64,000 nt of DNA from contig CBDCDS010000003.1 in the NCBI GenBank assembly GCA_965215365.1, forward strand, positions 1,216,001-1,280,000. Direction: 5' to 3'. This DNA comes from Gammaproteobacteria bacterium. Lineage in GTDB: Bacteria > Pseudomonadota > Gammaproteobacteria > Eutrophobiales > Eutrophobiaceae. A program made the position numbers and the translations under genes. The notes beneath the pieces are model-generated. The model made no database searches, was not told where the DNA came from, and was given only the letters and a program-made list of their open reading frames with translations. This document shows, piece after piece, positions 53,732-63,728 of the stretch (position 1 is the first letter of the stretch; the number at the start of each line of letters is the position of its first letter).

Positions 53732-56700
53732 TCATTGGCAGGCCTCGCAGTTCGGATCGTCCAGGCTGCATGTGGCGGCCGGCGCCTCCTTAGCGGCACT
53801 GCGTTCGACTGCGGCAAGTTGAGTTTCCCGACCGCCATCGAGCGTGCTTTTCTCGACATGGGTGGCGCCCAAGCTGCGCAGGTAGTAAGTGGTCTTGAGG
53901 CCCCGTATCCAGGCCAGCTTGTATAAGTTGTCCATCTTTTTGCCATCCGGCTCGCGCATGTACAGGTTCAGCGACTGCGCCTGATCCAGCCACTTCTGCC
54001 GCCTGGATGCGCATTCGACCAGCCAGCGCGGGTCAATTTCAAAGGCTGATGAATACAGCAGTTTCAACTCATCCGGGATGCGATCGACCTGCTGCACGCT
54101 GCCATCAAAATACTTCAAATCGCTGACCATAACGTCGTCCCAGAGCCCGTGCGCCTTGAGGTCGTGCACCATGTAGGGGTTGACTACCGTGAACTCCCCG
54201 GACAGGTTTGATTTGACGAACAGGTTCTGATAGGTCGGCTCGATGGATTGGCTGACGCCGCAAATATTGGAAATGGTCGCGGTGGGGGCGATGGCCATAC
54301 AGTTGGAGTTGCGCATGCCGGTTTTTTTCACGCGTTTGCGCAGGGCTGCCCAGTCCAGCTTAGCGCTCCGGTCCACTTCCAGGTAGCCGTTGCGGTTGTG
54401 TTCCAGTGCGTCGATGGAGTCAAGCGGCAGCAGGCCCTTACTCCACAGCGATCCCTTGAAGCTGGTGTAGGCGCCGCGCTCTTCGGCTAAGTCCGTGGAG
54501 GCCTTGATGGCGTGGTAACTGATCATTTCCATGCTGGCGTCGGCAAATTCAACCGCCTCTTTGGAGGCATAAGGCCGGCGCAGTTTGTACAGCGCATCCT
54601 GAAAGCCCATCAATCCCAAACCCACCGGGCGATGCTTGAGGTTGGAACGGCGCGCCTGCGGCACGCTGTAGTAGTTGTAGTCGATGACATTATCCAGCAT
54701 GCGCATGGCAACGCTGACGGTGTGCTCCAGCTTGGCCTGGTCCAGGCCGTTTGCGTCCACATGCTGTGCCAGGTTCACGGAGCCGAGGTTGCACACTGCG
54801 ATTTCGTCGTCGGAGGTGTTCAGGGTAATCTCGGTGCACAGGTTGGACGAATGCACTACGCCGATATGCTGCTGCGGCGAGCGCAGGTTGCAGGGGTCCT
54901 TGAAAGTGAGCCACGGGTGGCCGGTCTCGTACAGCATGGACAGCATCTTGCGCCACAAGTCCTGCGCGGCGATGGTCTTGTGCAGCTTGAGCTCGCCGGT
55001 CGCTGCCAGCTGCTCGTATTGTTCGTAGCGCCGGGTGAACTCGAGCCCGTACAACTCGTGCAGGTCCGGGGTGTCATCCGGCGAGAACAGGGTCCAGTTG
55101 CCGCCCTCACAGACGCGCCGCATGAACAGGTCGGGGATCCAGTTGGCCGTATTCATGTCATGGGTGCGACGCCGGTCATCACCGGTATTCTTGCGCAACT
55201 CCAGGAACTCCTCAATATCCAGGTGCCAGCTTTCCAGGTAGGCGCACATGGCGCCTTTGCGCTTGCCGCCCTGGTTGACGGCCACTGCGGTATCGTTGGC
55301 GACTTTGAGGAACGGCACCACACCCTGGGATTTGCCGTTGGTGCCCTTGATGTGCGCGCCCATGGACCGTACCCGGCTCCAGTCGTTGCCGAGCCCACCG
55401 GCGAACTTGGACAGCAGGGCGTCGTCCTTAATGGCGCTGAAGATGCCGTCTAAGTGGTCGGGCACCGTGCTCAGGTAGCAGGACGACAGTTGCGGCCGGC
55501 AGGTGCCGGAATTGAACAGGGTGGGGGTGGAGCTCATAAAATCGAAGGAGGACAGCAGCTCATAGAACTCAATGGCCCGGCTTTCCCGGTCCAGCTCGTT
55601 AATGGCCAGACCCATGGCCACCCGCATGAAAAACGCCTGCGGTAATTCGATGCGCACCTGTTTATCGGTGTGGATAAAGTAACGGTCGTACAGGGTTTGC
55701 AGGCCCAGGTAGGTGAACAGGTGATCGCGTTCGGGCTTGAGCGCCTGGCCCAGGCGCTCTAAGTCGTATTTCACCAGTTCGTGGTCGAGCAATCCCAACC
55801 CGGCGCCGGTTTCAATGTACTTGCGCAAATACTGCGGGTAATGCTCCGCCATCTGCGCCTGGGTGGCTTCCGTATCCTGGCCGTTGATATGGCTCAGCGC
55901 TTCCCGGCGCAGCCCGTCCAACAACAGGCGGGCGGCGGCATAGCTGTAGTTCGGTTCCTTTTCGATCATGGCCCGAGCGCTCATCACCAGCGCATGGTTG
56001 ACGTCGGCCTCGTTCACGCCGTCAAACAGATTGCGCAACGCGTCGTTGATGATGAGGCTGCCGTCAACCTGCTCTAAGGCGCTGCAGGCTTCATCCGTGA
56101 TCGCATGCAGACGCGCCACATCCAGTTGTTTCAGGGCGCCGTCGGCGGTGGTGACATTGATGTTGACACTGGCGTCGGTGGGCCCGGCAGCTGCGGCCTG
56201 TTCTTTTTCCAGGCGCGCCTGCGCCCGTTGTTCCCGGTAGATGACGTAGGCGCGCGCGACCTTCTGCTCGGCGGCGCGCATCAACGCCAGCTCAACCTGA
56301 TCCTGGATGTCTTCTATATGTACGGTGCCACCGCTGGGCAAGCGGCGCGTGACGCCCCGGGCCACTTGTTCGGTGAGCTGCGCGACTTTTTCATGCACGC
56401 GTTTGGACGCCGCGGCGGTGCCACCCTCTACCTCCAGGAAGGCCTTGGTGATGGCGACGCTGATCTTGGTAGCGTCAAAAGCCGTCACCTTGCCATTGCG
56501 ACGAATAACCTTGTAATCGCCGGGCTGGTAAGCGTTGAGCTGGCCGGCATATTCCGGGTCGGTATAGTCCGGGCTGGGGTATTCTTGTACGGTATGTTCT
56601 TGTCCCGCAGCCTTCGGCGCCGTATATTCTGGCGCTGTATATTCTGGCGCCGGGTGGCCGCCGTTCTGCCGGGCAAGCTCGTTGCCGCGGCGAACGTTAT

Positions 56701-56767
56701 CGGCTGCTACGTCAACAACGGACTCCGCCAGGGCGGTTTTATCGCTTTGCATTCGCCTTATCCACAC
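53732..56767 (-). CDS. nrdA: Class Ia ribonucleotide reductase alpha subunit (two ATP cones; start 56752 or 56767)
   Basis: TPTLFNSG, SSNLCTEI, VCNLGS, APTAT, KTTYY, C-terminal CEACQ. Confidence 0.96.
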   Translation of the reverse strand: MWIRRMQSDKTALAESVVDVAADNVRRGNELARQNGGHPAPEYTAPEYTAPKAAGQEHTVQEYPSPDYTDPEYAGQLNAYQPGDYKVIRRNGKVTAFDATKISVAITKAFLEVEGGTAAASKRVHEKVAQLTEQVARGVTRRLPSGGTVHIEDIQDQVELALMRAAEQKVARAYVIYREQRAQARLEKEQAAAAGPTDASVNINVTTADGALKQLDVARLHAITDEACSALEQVDGSLIINDALRNLFDGVNEADVNHALVMSARAMIEKEPNYSYAAARLLLDGLRREALSHINGQDTEATQAQMAEHYPQYLRKYIETGAGLGLLDHELVKYDLERLGQALKPERDHLFTYLGLQTLYDRYFIHTDKQVRIELPQAFFMRVAMGLAINELDRESRAIEFYELLSSFDFMSSTPTLFNSGTCRPQLSSCYLSTVPDHLDGIFSAIKDDALLSKFAGGLGNDWSRVRSMGAHIKGTNGKSQGVVPFLKVANDTAVAVNQGGKRKGAMCAYLESWHLDIEEFLELRKNTGDDRRRTHDMNTANWIPDLFMRRVCEGGNWTLFSPDDTPDLHELYGLEFTRRYEQYEQLAATGELKLHKTIAAQDLWRKMLSMLYETGHPWLTFKDPCNLRSPQQHIGVVHSSNLCTEITLNTSDDEIAVCNLGSVNLAQHVDANGLDQAKLEHTVSVAMRMLDNVIDYNYYSVPQARRSNLKHRPVGLGLMGFQDALYKLRRPYASKEAVEFADASMEMISYHAIKASTDLAEERGAYTSFKGSLWSKGLLPLDSIDALEHNRNGYLEVDRSAKLDWAALRKRVKKTGMRNSNCMAIAPTATISNICGVSQSIEPTYQNLFVKSNLSGEFTVVNPYMVHDLKAHGLWDDVMVSDLKYFDGSVQQVDRIPDELKLLYSSAFEIDPRWLVECASRRQKWLDQAQSLNLYMREPDGKKMDNLYKLAWIRGLKTTYYLRSLGATHVEKSTLDGGRETQLAAVERSAAKEAPAATCSLDDPNCEACQ

Positions 56768-58561: not shown

Positions 58562-58972
58562 TTATCCGGCAGGGTTTTCCAAATTTTCCTTTGCAGCAGC
58601 TTTGGCAAGCGCATTATCAAAGGTAGCCAATCTTGCACGGTTGCGTAGCGCTGTTTCCAGATAGCTGGCATCGTATACGCTCAGGTTATGTCGCTCTGCC
58701 AGGTCAAGTACCATTGCTCCATCGTGGCCGGTATCCACGGAGGGTGAGAATTCGTCCCTGAGTCGGTTTAAACAAATCTCAAAAATTTTCTGTTCTATAC
58801 GTTTGGCTCGTTTTGCTCTCAGCAGGACATTGCGAATTTCATACCAGAATATGTGCGGCACGATAACATCTTCGCTATCTGGTAGTTCCATTATTATCCG
58901 AGCGGAATCACTATGCTCTTCATCGCGTAATAACTGGGCTATCATCACCGAAGCGTCAATCACTATAGCCAT
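58562..58972 (-). CDS. vapC: VapC PIN-domain toxin
   Basis: VIDAS, YEIRN, LSVYDASYL..A, LATFD..L..AA: all four PIN acidic residues present. Confidence 0.9.
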   Translation of the reverse strand: MAIVIDASVMIAQLLRDEEHSDSARIIMELPDSEDVIVPHIFWYEIRNVLLRAKRAKRIEQKIFEICLNRLRDEFSPSVDTGHDGAMVLDLAERHNLSVYDASYLETALRNRARLATFDNALAKAAAKENLENPAG

Positions 58973-61821
58973 CAGCGACGCCCCTCCTCTTTCCAACGTC
59001 GAATCTCTTCTTGAGTCACCGGTTTCATGGATGCTTTCAGTTCACTTGAAGCTTTGAGGGCTCTTCTCAGGATGAAGGCGCGGAAAGTTTTATATTCGTC
59101 GGTAAATTCGGATTGGTTGATGCGCGTGTACCTCCAGGTATCACCTGTGGTCTTACTTACACATTCGCACCAGTCCTGCGCCGCGGCGTCTTTTTGCTCA
59201 GTGCCTGTCCATACACGGCCTTTGGTTTCGATAATCCAGTTGACTTCTCTGCTGCGAGTTTTTTGAACAGCCACCCAGTCGGGGAAATAAAAACCAATAG
59301 CGCCGCTGGGTTTCAGGTAGTCAATACGAAACTGTGTGCCGGATGTGCCTTGTTCGGTGGAACCCAGCGCCGCGAAGCGCAGTATATCTTCGGCCTTATC
59401 CAGGAATTCTGCAAACTGCCGTTCGAATGCGTTGTAAGTAGCCACGTAGTTGAAAATAGTCTTGTTTGCTGTGAGTGGTGGAAGATTGCGACGCCAGGGA
59501 AAGGATTTTATTGTTGACAAACAAAAATCTTCTTTTTCAAATTCTATTTCCCGGCGTTCGGTCACAAGATCGGCAATATTACGCGCCAGGTATTTTGCGA
59601 TTCCTTCCTGTATATCAAGCCGCGCCAGATATGATCCCACCCTTTCATCTTCCAAGTCCACCGGGATACCAAAACATCGTTGTGAGATATATTCCTCCAC
59701 GATGGGATACAGTTCCGCAAAGCGGCTGGGCAATTTCGCCTGATCTATCACTTTGTTGGTAATTTTTGCCAACGATTCTCCTGCCAGCGGAACGACACCG
59801 GCTGCCATATCAGCCTGGTGTATTTCGGTATTGGTGGGAGCGAATTCCATCTTAAGCCGAATACTGAGTCTCTCATCCAGATCTTCTTGATTATGAATCG
59901 CCCCCAGCGTATTAACTTTTAGTGCCTTCAATTTGCGCACTTCGTGTTTCAGTCTCGGTTTGGTGATTGGCAGAGCAACATCATACTGTTGCTTTTCCTT
60001 GATAGGCTCTATGGTAACAGGGTGCGGGGGGGCTATGCTCGTTTCCACTACCCCGACGCCCTCAGCTTCCAGTTGCTCGCGTAACACCTTCAGCAGGTTG
60101 CGCGTGCCCAGTACTTCAAGTGTCTGAGCCCGGTCCGGACCGACCTGGGTCATCAGGCGCAGCCCCCGTCCAATCACTTGTTCCGGCAGTATTTCAGATT
60201 TGGCGGTAAAAGGTCGCAGCCCCAGCACAATGCTCACGTTGCGCACATCCCAACCCTCACGCAACATCATCACGCTGACGATAACCTTAATCGTGCTTTG
60301 TGCGCTGTCAATATCTCTGGCAGCCTGACGGGCTGTTTCAAGGTCTTTTTTGGTAATTTCCCCGCTGCGATCGGTGTGGATAACGAGCACTTCAGATTGC
60401 TTGAAGCCAAACTCCTTGTTTTCCGAGAGATATTTACCTATGGCATCGGCATGGGCGTTGTTCTCCGCCATGACGAACAACACGGGTTTGGTATCCAGCC
60501 TGCGGTACACCTTCCAGTGTTCTTTCCAGCGCTGCACTGCCGCATGTAGCCAGTACGAGAATTTTTCGCACACGTTTTCTTTGGTGATGCCGTCGGGGTC
60601 TTCAGTCGGGCGCTGTGGGTCAGCTTCTTGGGTCACAATCAAGGGCGCTTTGACAATACGGTCTTCCACTGCCTGTGCGAGGGGATAATCACAGACTGTC
60701 CAGGGGTAATACATGCCATTTTGATCCTTGGGGGTGGCGGAGAAATCGAGCCAGACATTAAGACCCCTGGGCAAAGCGCTGTGGATAGCCAGTAATGAAC
60801 TGGTCCAAGCTAGGTCGCTACGATGAACGTGATGTGCTTCATCATTGATGACTATCAGATCTTGCAGCGACTTAAGACGCCGCAGCATTGATCGCTGCCC
60901 TGAAGCAGCGAGGTCTTTGTTGGGTTTTTTGCCTAGCAATGCTTCGATAGCACTGCCTGGTGTCCACTCCTGTTCGCGGGATTCATGCAGTTGGTGGATA
61001 TTGGTCAGGAACAGGTTGTCAGCAAGGTCGGGTTCGTTGGTCTCTTCGCGCAGGATCACCTTTTGTGAAAAGGCCCCCTTCCACTCGGTGGGAATCAGCG
61101 GCAGTTGGTGGAAGATACGGTTGTTGGCAAAGTCTTTTTCCAAGCGCTGATACACGATCACATTCGGTGCCACGATCAAAAAGTTACTTGACAGATCTGA
61201 ACCGGCAACAAGTTGCTTGTGCAGGCGCGCCCAGACAATGAACATTGCCATTACCCAGGTTTTGCCTGAACCGGTGGCCTGCTTGAAAGCAAAGCGGCGT
61301 AGGGTTTCGGGGGGCAATTCCTGTACTCCCTCGTTATCCAATTCCGGCACGTAGCGGTGCAAACGCAGTTGACCATCCATAGTCGTATCAAAGCGGAAAT
61401 TGTCTGTAAACAGGTTTGTTTTGTATTGGGTAGCGTGCTGCTCAATGAGTTTCCGGGTAGTGCGCACACCGGCAATCTCAATCAACCAGACTACGGTTTC
61501 AACTGCTTCGCGCTGACAGAAGTGGAAACGGAAGGGCGGGTCGAAATCAGGAACAATGTGTTCTTCCTCAAACCAGTACTGAAACAGGCGTTTTGTTACA
61601 GGCGAGGCGCCGTCATAACCCCCATCCCGCCACACATCAACTGCCTGCCGGATTTTTGGAACCAGCAGCAAGCTGCTTTCCCTGCGCCCGGCAGCTTCGC
61701 GCCAACCATTTGATGCTTTGTCGTCCTTGATCAGGTGAAAAGCAGGTCTCTCCCATGGTCGCCGGCTGGCAATGGCCGGCAGATCTTTATCATAATTGAC
61801 CAGAGAACGGACCATGATCAA
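58972..61821 (-). CDS. Type III restriction endonuclease (Res) with antitoxin-like C-terminal tail
   Basis: ATGSGKT, DEAHH, SATP, EGWD, EQVIGRGLR, nuclease PDW..IETKG; tail ..PVTQEEIRRWKEEGRR. Confidence 0.9.
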   Translation of the reverse strand: MIMVRSLVNYDKDLPAIASRRPWERPAFHLIKDDKASNGWREAAGRRESSLLLVPKIRQAVDVWRDGGYDGASPVTKRLFQYWFEEEHIVPDFDPPFRFHFCQREAVETVVWLIEIAGVRTTRKLIEQHATQYKTNLFTDNFRFDTTMDGQLRLHRYVPELDNEGVQELPPETLRRFAFKQATGSGKTWVMAMFIVWARLHKQLVAGSDLSSNFLIVAPNVIVYQRLEKDFANNRIFHQLPLIPTEWKGAFSQKVILREETNEPDLADNLFLTNIHQLHESREQEWTPGSAIEALLGKKPNKDLAASGQRSMLRRLKSLQDLIVINDEAHHVHRSDLAWTSSLLAIHSALPRGLNVWLDFSATPKDQNGMYYPWTVCDYPLAQAVEDRIVKAPLIVTQEADPQRPTEDPDGITKENVCEKFSYWLHAAVQRWKEHWKVYRRLDTKPVLFVMAENNAHADAIGKYLSENKEFGFKQSEVLVIHTDRSGEITKKDLETARQAARDIDSAQSTIKVIVSVMMLREGWDVRNVSIVLGLRPFTAKSEILPEQVIGRGLRLMTQVGPDRAQTLEVLGTRNLLKVLREQLEAEGVGVVETSIAPPHPVTIEPIKEKQQYDVALPITKPRLKHEVRKLKALKVNTLGAIHNQEDLDERLSIRLKMEFAPTNTEIHQADMAAGVVPLAGESLAKITNKVIDQAKLPSRFAELYPIVEEYISQRCFGIPVDLEDERVGSYLARLDIQEGIAKYLARNIADLVTERREIEFEKEDFCLSTIKSFPWRRNLPPLTANKTIFNYVATYNAFERQFAEFLDKAEDILRFAALGSTEQGTSGTQFRIDYLKPSGAIGFYFPDWVAVQKTRSREVNWIIETKGRVWTGTEQKDAAAQDWCECVSKTTGDTWRYTRINQSEFTDEYKTFRAFILRRALKASSELKASMKPVTQEEIRRWKEEGRR

Positions 61822-63728
61822 GTGACCATTGCTTCAAATACCTGTGAGGTGTCGTTACCGAAGATATCGATGACCTTGACCAATATTCGGTAGTTTCCCG
61901 CTTCATCATAAGTATGCTTGTCGGAACTGAGCTGCAACGCACGTTCCTTGCGCGTGCGGTAGGCCACCCAGCCCTGCATGAAGGTGTCATTCCTGAAATC
62001 CCAGTCCACCGCCCAATAGTCGATATAATCCGACCACTTTTTGACTTTACTGCGTACCTCATCTGGAATGAGCTCTGAATTGGGGATCTCAAAATCTTCC
62101 AGTCTAACCTGTACCGTGAGTGGTTGTGAGGTTTCCACTGCTGCTTTCAGGTAGGCCAGTTCAAAGAATTGGATATCGCCTTTATCCACGGCTTGTTGCT
62201 CCATTACTTCGCGTGGAATTTGTAACAGCAGCAATTTCACTCCCTGCTTTTTCACTGCCGCCACCACCAGGTCTTGCAAGCCCATTTCCCATTCCCACCC
62301 GAGCAGGTGCAATTCCGTTTGTTTGAGATTGATACATTCCTCCACCGCGACATTGATCTCATCGAATGTCACCGGTGCATCAATCATCCCAATATGGACC
62401 AGAGCCTTATTTTTCTTGCCGTGCAAATGCGCCATACCGGCAACCGGTTGCGCGCCGTAAAGTTTGAGGATGAAAGCCAGGTATTGATAGATTGTCTGTT
62501 CGCTCGGGACGCTGCCAAAAGTTGCTCCCTGCCAGTACTGCCGCTCATACTTGCCGAGGTTCAAAATCTCGAACGGTTTGCAGTTTTCAATACCAAGCAT
62601 TCGCTTGCGGGTAACGTGGATGCCCCAACGACCCAGATCGCAGCCGATCCAGCGTCGGCCAAGTTTTTCTGCTACGGCCAGCGTGGTTCCGGAACCGCAG
62701 AAGAAATCGGCTACCAAGTAATCGGGTTCACTAGAAAGACCAATAATTCGTTCGAGTAATTTTTCAGGTTTTTGTGTGTCATATCCTGTGACCTCTGAGG
62801 TTGTCCCCATTTTATATGCCCGAGGATCAGCATAGGCCTGTTGAATATCTGACCATACTGTAGAGGCAGGAACTCCTTTACTTTCATCAAGATATTGATG
62901 TTCCCAATATCGTTCACCTGTTTGTTTATTGACACGTTGCCTTCTTCGATAGCGTCGCCCTGAATCATCGGTATATTTAAACCAGTCTTTTATATATTTC
63001 TCTGAGTACGGCAGATAAACCAAATTAAATTTGTGTGTTCCATACTTCTTGGAAAATATGAATAAAATATCATGAGCTTTTACGAGTTTGGAACCTGATA
63101 CTCGCCCACCTGAGGGAGAGCCATAGCTCCAAACTACTTCCCCAAGACTGTTGCTTTCATCGAAAATTTCGTCTAGTAAAGGGCGTAAATGATGTCCCAC
63201 ATACCAGTCAAGATGCACATATAACGTCCCTCTTTCACTTAAAAGGTCCCGTATCAACAGGAGTCGTTTATACATCATATCAAACCATGAGTCTCTACCC
63301 TTTCCCCATGTATCCCGGTATGCTTTTTCTTCTATGATGGATTGTTCTTTTTTGACATTTCCATCAGTCTCGCCAATTTCCGTCGTAAATGAAAAATCCG
63401 CGCCCGTAGCAAACGGTGGGTCTATGTAGATCAGATCAATCTTCCCGGCAAACTTCTCCAGCAGCGATCCCATTACCAGCAGGTTGTCGCCCCAAATCAG
63501 CTTATTCCGCCATCCTTCCTCAAAAGTCTCTCCTTCCTTGCCTTCATAAACATCAAAGATAGAGGACTGTATTCCTGTTTTCTGTGCCTCCCTGGTGGCG
63601 CGGCTTTCGTTGACGGTTTCAATTACCTGAAAAGGCAGGCCGACTCGTGGCGTTTCCACCAGCGTGCCATCGTCATTGTATTTCCCCGGCCAGACGAGCT
63701 CGGTTTTTGTTATATCAATTTTTGCCAT
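61818..63728 (-). CDS. Type III R-M methyltransferase (Mod)
   Basis: LIWGDNL, IYIDPPF, TQKPEKLL, DFFCGSGTT (beta order); AT-rich central TRD; ATGA overlap with res. Confidence 0.92.
   Translation of the reverse strand: MAKIDITKTELVWPGKYNDDGTLVETPRVGLPFQVIETVNESRATREAQKTGIQSSIFDVYEGKEGETFEEGWRNKLIWGDNLLVMGSLLEKFAGKIDLIYIDPPFATGADFSFTTEIGETDGNVKKEQSIIEEKAYRDTWGKGRDSWFDMMYKRLLLIRDLLSERGTLYVHLDWYVGHHLRPLLDEIFDESNSLGEVVWSYGSPSGGRVSGSKLVKAHDILFIFSKKYGTHKFNLVYLPYSEKYIKDWFKYTDDSGRRYRRRQRVNKQTGERYWEHQYLDESKGVPASTVWSDIQQAYADPRAYKMGTTSEVTGYDTQKPEKLLERIIGLSSEPDYLVADFFCGSGTTLAVAEKLGRRWIGCDLGRWGIHVTRKRMLGIENCKPFEILNLGKYERQYWQGATFGSVPSEQTIYQYLAFILKLYGAQPVAGMAHLHGKKNKALVHIGMIDAPVTFDEINVAVEECINLKQTELHLLGWEWEMGLQDLVVAAVKKQGVKLLLLQIPREVMEQQAVDKGDIQFFELAYLKAAVETSQPLTVQVRLEDFEIPNSELIPDEVRSKVKKWSDYIDYWAVDWDFRNDTFMQGWVAYRTRKERALQLSSDKHTYDEAGNYRILVKVIDIFGNDTSQVFEAMVT

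Follow-up and report, generated by a model that had tools for sequence, protein, structure and literature searches.

The question raised by this locus is what keeps a putative toxin silent when no antitoxin gene stands beside it. The locus lies in a stretch of 64,000 nucleotides (nt) of contig CBDCDS010000003.1 from a Gammaproteobacteria bacterium (assembly GCA_965215365.1), the whole of which we call the window, and its three genes, mod, res and vapC, form a compact minus-strand operon within an insert of low G+C content (GC). The first two encode the methyltransferase and the restriction subunit of a Type III restriction-modification (R-M) system and the third a PIN-domain protein of the VapC kind. 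A first-pass annotation of the window had proposed that the restriction enzyme is itself the antitoxin. Our comparative analysis leads to the same view: the C-terminal tail of Res probably binds and neutralises VapC, which would make Res the antitoxin of VapC. The features concerned are as follows (aa, amino acids; ORF, open reading frame).

61818..63728, minus strand: mod, Type III DNA methyltransferase, 636 aa (from ORF, Pfam and PADLOC).

58972..61821 including the stop codon, minus strand: res, encoding the Type III restriction subunit (949 aa when read from TTG), with superfamily 2 (SF2) helicase, putative C-terminal endonuclease and tail.

58975..59112, minus strand: C-terminal extension of Res, 46 residues past an R-I-N-Q motif, with a linker helix and a terminal helix.

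58975..59025, minus strand: terminal 17-residue motif KPVTQEEIRRWKEEGRR, of the type found at Phd/YefM-VapB C-termini and putatively VapC-neutralising.

58981..58989, minus strand: Shine-Dalgarno sequence of vapC, GAGGAGGGG, within the E-E-G codons of Res and read from the sequence.

58562..58972, minus strand: vapC, PIN-domain putative toxin, 136 aa from an ATG start (from ORF and Pfam PIN).

The ends of res and vapC are interlocked. Their junction reads GAG GAG GGG CGT CGC TGATG, in which the res stop codon overlaps the vapC start by 1 nt, and an overlap or near-overlap of stop and start is retained in 14 of 14 Res-linked loci. The first-pass annotation had described a chain of two overlaps, of which the TGATG between res and vapC is present and the ATGA between mod and res is not; the latter junction reads TGA-tc-ATG, with a 2-nt spacer, or, counted from the TTG start, overlaps as TTGA. 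An alternative res start, ATG at 61815, gives a protein of 947 aa, the form of database entry P0001. The same annotation had reported four PIN acidic residues in VapC and no separate antitoxin gene alongside it, and both observations hold. Residues D6, E45, D101 and D119 are all present and are kept in nine of ten Res-linked VapCs, the tenth being the shortened VapC of L025. A separate antitoxin gene would have no space here, with Res directly upstream and no small ORF either in the 58 nt after vapC or at the junction.

Res was also said to continue past its nuclease domain, and comparison with its homologues confirms this. With Res residues 650-949 as query, 1586 proteins were retrieved at E <= 0.001, and the best 120 of these 1586 were analysed, tail-bearing and tail-less homologues being sorted by the length of the extension after the R-(I/V)-N-Q motif. 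These 120 share 58-75% identity with Res over the C-terminal 300 aa. In 71 of the 120 the extension measures 46-51 aa, and in the other 49 it consists of 16-30 unrelated aa. The tail is a feature of a coherent clade of Res proteins, neither an assembly accident nor a family-wide trait. A plasmid collection yielded two Res matches only, at 23% identity, neither of them with a tail.

Tails of the homologues close with ..M.PVTQEEIRRWKEEGRR, ..TMSHEEFLQWRDEGRR or ..TMSRAEIRRAREEGRA, or with variants of these, and share the terminus ..EEI..W/A.(E/D)EGR. The last 17 columns are the most conserved of the extension, at 65-100% identity, a range that rises to 94-100% for E, W, E, G and R. At 14 loci the codons of the terminal residues vary synonymously (GAG/GAA, GGG/GGC/GGT, CGT/CGC/CGG/AGA), which therefore argues for selection on the tail peptide, beyond the Shine-Dalgarno sequence embedded in it. 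The NCBIfam model of Res stops near residue 903-915, before the end of the tail. In an AlphaFold2 model of Res (36-row alignment; mean predicted local distance difference test score, pLDDT, of 71.5), the last nuclease strand is followed by two helices, 911-929 and 935-943, predicted with a moderate pLDDT of about 60-72.

The distribution of the tail follows that of vapC closely. Scanning one genome per species with an alignment of Res gave 80 loci with Res proteins of 33-72% identity, and the C-terminus of Res is complete in 76 of them. Twelve of these 76 bear the tail, namely L003, L004, L014 (in degenerate form), L015, L021, L023, L025, L028, L030, L031, L054 and L064, the tails of L031 and L064 being assigned by eye. 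Directly behind nine of the 12 tail-bearing Res genes lies a VapC ORF whose start either overlaps the end of res, by 1 or 4 nt, or follows it immediately, and these ORFs match the window VapC with phmmer E values of 1e-23 to 2e-50. VapC stands behind none of the 52 tail-less Res genes with at least 400 nt of downstream DNA, and a tblastn search (E <= 0.01) of all 64 tail-less Res loci returned no VapC at any position. Conversely, a VapC behind a Res without the tail was seen in 0 cases among the genome and metagenome loci examined. Fisher's test for the link between tail and vapC gives p 8e-9, a value that overstates the evidence since the loci are related.

The nine loci with both tail and VapC come from metagenome-assembled genomes of Gemmatimonadota, Acidobacteriota (Vicinamibacterales, Bryobacterales), Alphaproteobacteria and Gammaproteobacteria, and a full-length Mod lies upstream of Res in nine of nine. 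With four metagenome contigs added, the fusion is found at 13 loci besides the window, in at least three phyla. Co-occurrence of tail and vapC, which the first-pass annotation had proposed to test across genomes, is observed in 9 of 12 tail-bearing loci vs 0 of 52 tail-less ones. Among the findings that would have told against its proposal, the same annotation had named a tail general to Res homologues, a fusion unique to this assembly and a cognate antitoxin encoded elsewhere in the genome. None of these three turned up. A tail general to Res is rejected by the homologues without it (49 of 120) and the loci without it (64 of 76), the tail being restricted to one coherent portion of the family; a misassembly or unique deletion is rejected by the 13 other loci and the 71 clusters; and an orphan antitoxin elsewhere in the genome is rejected because none of this type was found there. 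A micro-antitoxin from an internal Met start was rejected as well, the Met being missing in 11 of 66 tails.

The three tail-bearing loci that lack vapC look like decay of the arrangement, a pattern that would fit the logic of toxin-antitoxin (TA) modules. At L015, Res and its tail are intact, vapC is gone and a convergent gene follows about 100 nt on. L064 is degraded, with deletions in both mod and res. In the Rhodothermales Res of L014 (3760-5930, plus strand) the tail is degenerate and lengthened and ends ..LTLREQVQWRAAGHNLKLDVDE; 240 nt after res, in place of vapC, there is a 594-aa ORF that appears P-loop ATPase-like by eye. A further case concerns the toxin itself: the Vicinamibacterales VapC of L025 (6847-7203, plus strand) is truncated to 119 aa and so stops short of the fourth PIN acidic residue (D119 in the numbering of the window VapC); it is probably an inactivated toxin beside an intact tail.

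The origin of the tail is suggested by free-standing relatives of VapC. Relatives of VapC were sought in 401 genomes of the same phylum and turned up in 61, a count that includes one unpublished genome (G383) that contributed no locus, and 29 loci were analysed; a metagenome scan added 80 VapC loci, and pooling with the Res loci gave 119. Upstream of VapC these 119 loci have a tail-bearing Res in 14 (the window, nine genome loci and four metagenome contigs), a small ORF with an EGR/EGH-type end in 93 and an unclear neighbour in 12, and a tail-less Res in 0 of the 119. The small upstream ORFs are Phd/YefM antitoxins above the Pfam cut-off in all 11 of 11 that were tested. In particular, the nearest other VapCs pair with Phd/YefM antitoxins of 77-106 aa that carry the motif ...EEI..W/A.(E/D)EGR(R/A). 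Free antitoxins end in ..SIREMIEEGRR, ..LMEWKSEGRK, ..EEWVAFKSEGRR or ..PEEIRLWRDEGRRF, and the antitoxin group closest to the Res-linked VapCs ends in ..SAAEIRAARDEGRA, nearly equal to the A-type Res tails, ..SRAEIRRAREEGRA. The terminal motif that the first-pass annotation had given for Phd/VapB antitoxins, directly before the toxin start, is therefore matched by the sequences of real free antitoxins.

The search of the tail against Phd/VapB C-termini that it had suggested also gave a positive result. When 66 distinct tails were compared with 28 free antitoxins by hhalign, 17 columns aligned, C-terminus to C-terminus, with Prob 84.9% and P 6.4e-6. The motif comparison of tails and antitoxins covered 107 loci. 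Judged from these alignments, the C-terminal toxin-binding segment of Phd/YefM would be present in the Res tail at the level of the motif only, and the likeness is short. A search for short free proteins resembling the tail (30-97 aa, in a set of 5.8 billion proteins) gave P0121 as its one candidate, and this proved to be a piece of a Res C-terminus; the search was word-based and blind to the more distant free antitoxins later found by context.

Could something other than the tail restrain VapC? One alternative is that neutralisation comes from a peptide made from an internal Met (MKPVTQEEIRRWKEEGRR), from a hidden small ORF or RNA or from a distant antitoxin, or that VapC is inert and the tail a relic of an insertion into vapB. 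A Met does occur 13-24 residues from the end in 55 of 66 distinct tails, but whole sub-lineages are among the 11 of 66 in which it is absent. The genome (G000, contig C3) encodes seven other Phd/YefM-like ORFs, L192 to L198, and the antitoxin of L192 ends ..EELQVWEGR, faintly resembling the Res tail. None of the seven has the tail's terminal motif, however, and six of them are closely followed by another ORF, PIN-like by eye. The window VapC is the sole copy of its type in the genome, without a paralogue that a distant antitoxin could serve, and no small ORF fits the role. Persistence of the tail without VapC at three loci would agree with a relic; protein-level conservation through synonymous changes in 71 clusters and co-divergence with VapC speak against one, and the conserved PIN acidic residues speak against an inert VapC. 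Taken together, we regard a source of antitoxin other than the tail, or a VapC that needs none, as very improbable.

Under the explanation that we favour, in which the tail is the antitoxin, Res would have gained, as its last ~45 residues, the toxin-binding C-terminus of a Phd/YefM-type VapB antitoxin and would not have gained the DNA-binding N-domain of that antitoxin. The tail's terminal helix (..EEIRRWKEEGRR) would lie on VapC and block the PIN active site, as free antitoxins of the subfamily do. Translation of vapC would be coupled to the end of res, and each Res would be made together with one VapC. The latter, presumably a toxic RNase, would ride as a silent passenger on the Mod-Res complex with Res as its only antitoxin. 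Made in step with Res, the toxin would no longer be autoregulated, since the Phd DNA-binding domain is gone.

The proposed contact was modelled by co-folding VapC (10-row alignment) with Res residues 898-947 in three runs, alongside three controls. The interaction prediction score from aligned errors (ipSAE) was 0.32 (runs 0.31-0.36) vs 0.01 for the best control; the runs share at least 61% of their contacts, with a partner pLDDT of at least 54. In calibration, 58 of 80 solved complexes and 2 of 110 mismatched pairs attained the mark, and scores up to an ipSAE of 0.60 take in only 7 of the 80 solved complexes and both mismatched pairs that passed. Likeness to already solved VapBC complexes may raise the score. 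Residues on the two sides may also vary together. Where tail or antitoxin has a Trp six residues before the final Arg, position 13 of VapC is not Trp (11 of 12 loci), and where that Trp is missing VapC has W13 (71 of 82 loci), in free and Res-fused forms alike. The first-pass proposal of Res as antitoxin has come through all the comparative tests suggested with it, while for binding there is the weak co-fold (0.32 vs 0.01).

Several points weigh against a tail that acts as antitoxin. The co-fold is a weak pass, of a kind oftener wrong than right unless the complex is likely beforehand. The Trp swap amounts to about three independent pairs (sign test p 0.25) and is not significant. Pfam and NCBIfam detect no antitoxin family in the tail: Pfam at E <= 10 on the tail alone returned a chance NUFIP1 match only (E 0.018), and PF02604 (Phd/YefM) has no match at E <= 10 in either full-length Res or the final 60 aa. 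The 120 Res proteins, searched by hmmsearch with a whole-antitoxin profile, match in register and weakly, with E 0.01-1 per protein. The ribosome-binding site of vapC could account for some of the conservation of E-E-G. The association with vapC comes from 13 loci that are other than the 71 tail-bearing protein clusters. At 3 of 12 loci (L015, L064 and L014) the tail is found without VapC and can outlast the toxin. Finally, Res is large and probably stable, unlike a classical labile antitoxin, which complicates the release of VapC.

The history of the two partners was followed on separate trees. On a VapC tree (100 rows, quick IQ-TREE) the Res-linked label takes a single change, with modest deep support, and the Res-linked VapCs form one group with the seven closest free VapCs (Shimodaira-Hasegawa-like approximate likelihood-ratio test, SH-aLRT, 85). 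On a FastTree phylogeny of the Res core, built from 114 rows without the tail columns, the tail label takes three changes. Here 39 tail-less Res form one well-supported clade, and two single tail-less proteins, P0008 (923 aa) and P0084 (926 aa), are nested among the tail-bearers. P0008 is the nearest relative of the window Res, at 77% identity, and keeps the start of the linker (..HRTFQEF..) before it diverges; in both proteins the absence of the tail looks like secondary loss. Across 13 loci, Res-core and VapC distances are correlated (Mantel r 0.78, permutation p 2e-4). The simplest history would be a single old fusion of the C-terminal segment of a Phd-type antitoxin to Res, after which the fused unit would have been inherited and transferred whole, with occasional loss, the toxin going before the tail.

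Co-divergence is also what subunits of one machine would show, and it can be read in favour of VapC as a working accessory nuclease. The tail would then be a docking peptide that recruits the PIN domain to the Type III complex, for example for cutting phage RNA or DNA at restriction sites. The apparent 1:1 coupled synthesis and the covalent anchor on a large enzyme resemble the recruitment of a subunit, and the PIN catalytic residues are kept. Against this, the same terminal motif in the sister modules is that of classical inhibitory Phd/YefM antitoxins, and tails without VapC exist whereas VapC without the tail never does, an asymmetry expected of a toxin and its antidote. A docking role is in our estimation improbable.

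If the tail does silence VapC, what would the arrangement be for? Three routes of release can be envisaged: Res may be inhibited or destabilised by a phage factor, it may change conformation on engaging foreign DNA, or res may be lost or truncated. The first two would constitute a guard of the PrrC/EcoprrI kind and the third an addiction or mutational lock; they are compatible and not exclusive. A guard role, in which VapC is freed or unmasked as phage attack inhibits, degrades or engages Res and then stops translation in an abortive infection, is a real possibility that we favour with reserve. So is a self-guarding Res whose tail would be a tripwire that drops VapC upon inhibition, degradation or jamming by phage or upon truncation of res, whereupon RNA would be cut and the infection aborted.

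The same fused antitoxin might instead serve as an addiction or mutational lock in which tail and VapC stabilise the R-M cassette and do not sense phage. Upon loss of the island, or upon a nonsense, frameshift or insertion-sequence mutation in res, no tail would be made and the remaining VapC would poison the cell. The antitoxin peptide lies at the extreme C-terminus of a 947-aa ORF, and therefore any nonsense, frameshift or deletion upstream, and each truncating mutation, would remove it. A low-GC cassette spread across several phyla fits a selfish mobile unit, and in sister loci other TA modules (MNT-HEPN) stand between mod and res. Moreover, an R-M pair of this type is not strongly addictive by itself, because a Type III Res requires Mod to act. 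On the other hand, coupled translation means that a premature stop in res may also lower VapC synthesis, a lock requires VapC to outlive Res, and L015 lost vapC with Res and tail intact, so the lock would not be irreversible. We consider stabilisation of the cassette as the purpose of the fusion to be rather unlikely.

Known systems offer partial parallels to a restriction enzyme that carries an antitoxin. PrrC is a latent anticodon nuclease that, as described in the sources cited, is silenced by the Type Ic R-M enzyme EcoprrI and released by the T4 product Stp, upon which translation is shut down (PMC1484252; PMC12707154). Here, too, the gene of an RNase-type toxin would lie inside an R-M locus, and silencing by the restriction enzyme is what we propose. 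PrrC differs in being an ABC-ATPase with an anticodon nuclease and a Type I partner, in non-covalent contact and without an antitoxin-like peptide, whereas the present system has a PIN/VapC protein, a Type III enzyme and, as putative silencing element, an antitoxin-like C-terminus that is part of the Res chain itself. For the window toxin Pfam, NCBIfam and PADLOC give PIN only, with no sign of homology to PrrC.

The Phd/YefM-type VapBC modules offer another parallel. The free pairs of L082-L110 and L114-L190 belong to the same VapC subfamily, with 28-51% identity to the window VapC; their antitoxins end in (E/D)EGR(R/K/A), and the antitoxin stop overlaps the toxin start. The nearest solved antitoxin is chain 3dbo_A. 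Unlike these modules, the window locus has no separate antitoxin gene, no Phd/YefM DNA-binding and dimerising domain and presumably no autoregulation, and the putative neutralising peptide hangs on a 900-aa restriction enzyme.

That a terminal element can work away from its own antitoxin is indicated by the NetFlax study, according to which a linear Phd-C element on a SUMO carrier suffices to neutralise its toxin, and which proposes sensor domains attached to neutralising peptides (PMC10440598). The Panacea-Phd-C modular antitoxins, as presented there, likewise have a short terminal (C- or N-) neutralising element on an unrelated globular domain. In our case the carrier would be a complete defence enzyme with helicase and nuclease, and the toxin is VapC and not Doc. 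PARIS (AriA/AriB) is characterised in a 2025 review as an 'RM guardian' that detects R-M inhibition and activates abortive infection, a class in which that review also places PrrC (PMC12707154), and CapRel is given as a case in which an antitoxin element can unmask its toxin without dissociation (PMC10440598). Both are alike in concept only and consist of unrelated proteins; PARIS is physically separate from the R-M enzyme, and CapRel combines its toxin and antitoxin in one chain. In Pez-Ham, PezAT is combined with Hachiman and a complete two-gene TA acts, as reported, as a transcriptional brake (PMC13064477). It resembles the present locus in that a type II TA toxin is genetically joined to a nuclease-helicase defence system, and it differs in that no antitoxin is fused to a defence protein in that system as outlined there. 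A full-text literature search, whose scope was main texts, gave no account of an antitoxin peptide borne by a restriction subunit.

In this arrangement R-M and TA, both very common modules, would be joined at the protein level, with the antitoxin cut to a peptide of ~20-45 residues on Res. It spans dozens of protein clusters and occurs in Gemmatimonadota, Acidobacteriota and Alpha- and Gammaproteobacteria. If the tail is the antitoxin, a large enzyme with an activity of its own can carry a type II antitoxin function, and truncating mutations in res would be self-punishing. The tail would also give access, through a known sequence that is easy to mutate, to the long-standing question of how a restriction enzyme's state is sensed by guardian toxins, PrrC among them. 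The grafting of short antitoxin peptides on defence proteins could then be a general route by which these become sensors. Should Res prove to be self-guarding, it would be the first known case of a restriction enzyme that, by a covalent link, itself serves as antitoxin to a type II toxin.

The identities of the three genes were assigned by profile matches. Mod matches Pfam N6_N4_Mtase (PF01555, E 2.5e-37) and PADLOC MTase_III (PDLC03633, E 2.1e-126), and Res matches Pfam ResIII (PF04851, E 4e-16) and PADLOC REase_III (E 8e-19). The putative C-terminal endonuclease of Res scores 21.3 bits with Pfam RE_endonuc, slightly under the cut-off of 23.4; its match to the NCBIfam BPTD_3080 family (E 5.7e-83), whose model covers the endonuclease region, is under the equivalog cut-off. 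Among 36 homologues, the helicase residues D325, E326, A327 and H328 (DEAH) and the nuclease residues E863, T864 and K865 (E-x-K) are invariant. Judged from sequence, three hallmarks of a Type III R-M system are present, namely a Mod methyltransferase, a Res with SF2 helicase and an operon with mod before res. VapC matches Pfam PIN with E 1.5e-15 (58.3 bits; cut-off 23.6) and lies under the curated NCBIfam VapC cut-offs (TIGR00028, 19 bits vs 73.6; NF047959, 15 bits vs 80), and the window toxin is best described as a predicted PIN/VapC-like protein outside TIGR00028 and NF047959. The solved structure nearest to it is the uncomplexed PIN protein PAE0151 (E 3.3e-12).

In sister loci the space between mod and res can hold further genes. 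At L025 (3260-4005, plus strand) it contains a second TA pair, a minimal nucleotidyltransferase (Pfam NTP_transf_2, E 1.7e-10) with a HEPN protein (E 1.4e-14) behind it, and at L004 (3495-3964, plus strand) a nucleotidyltransferase and a following 53-aa ORF. The mod-res gap of L015 is equal in size. Sister R-M operons seem to collect TA modules.

The GC of the mod-res-vapC segment is 0.40-0.55 vs 0.64-0.67 in the flanks. On one side, a convergent gene, dihydrolipoamide dehydrogenase (lpdA)-like by eye, lies 58 nt from the end of vapC. Beside mod (L191:799-2733, corresponding to window 63799-65733) are a 248-aa RadC/JAB-domain gene and then a 387-aa AAA_14/DUF4143 ATPase. GC is still lowered across these two genes, and the next one, a TonB-dependent receptor, has the GC of the host. 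The 16 kb past the window yielded no tRNA gene, and no integrase among six ORFs scanned there. A scan for promoters and terminators gave fewer promoter-like sites than shuffled controls and was uninformative on an internal vapC promoter. Elsewhere in the window (53732-56767, minus strand) there is a 1011-aa ORF which, by eye, appears to encode the large subunit of a class I ribonucleotide reductase, and its N-terminus carries short PEYT-like repeats (..PEYTAPEYTAP..PDYTDPEY..).

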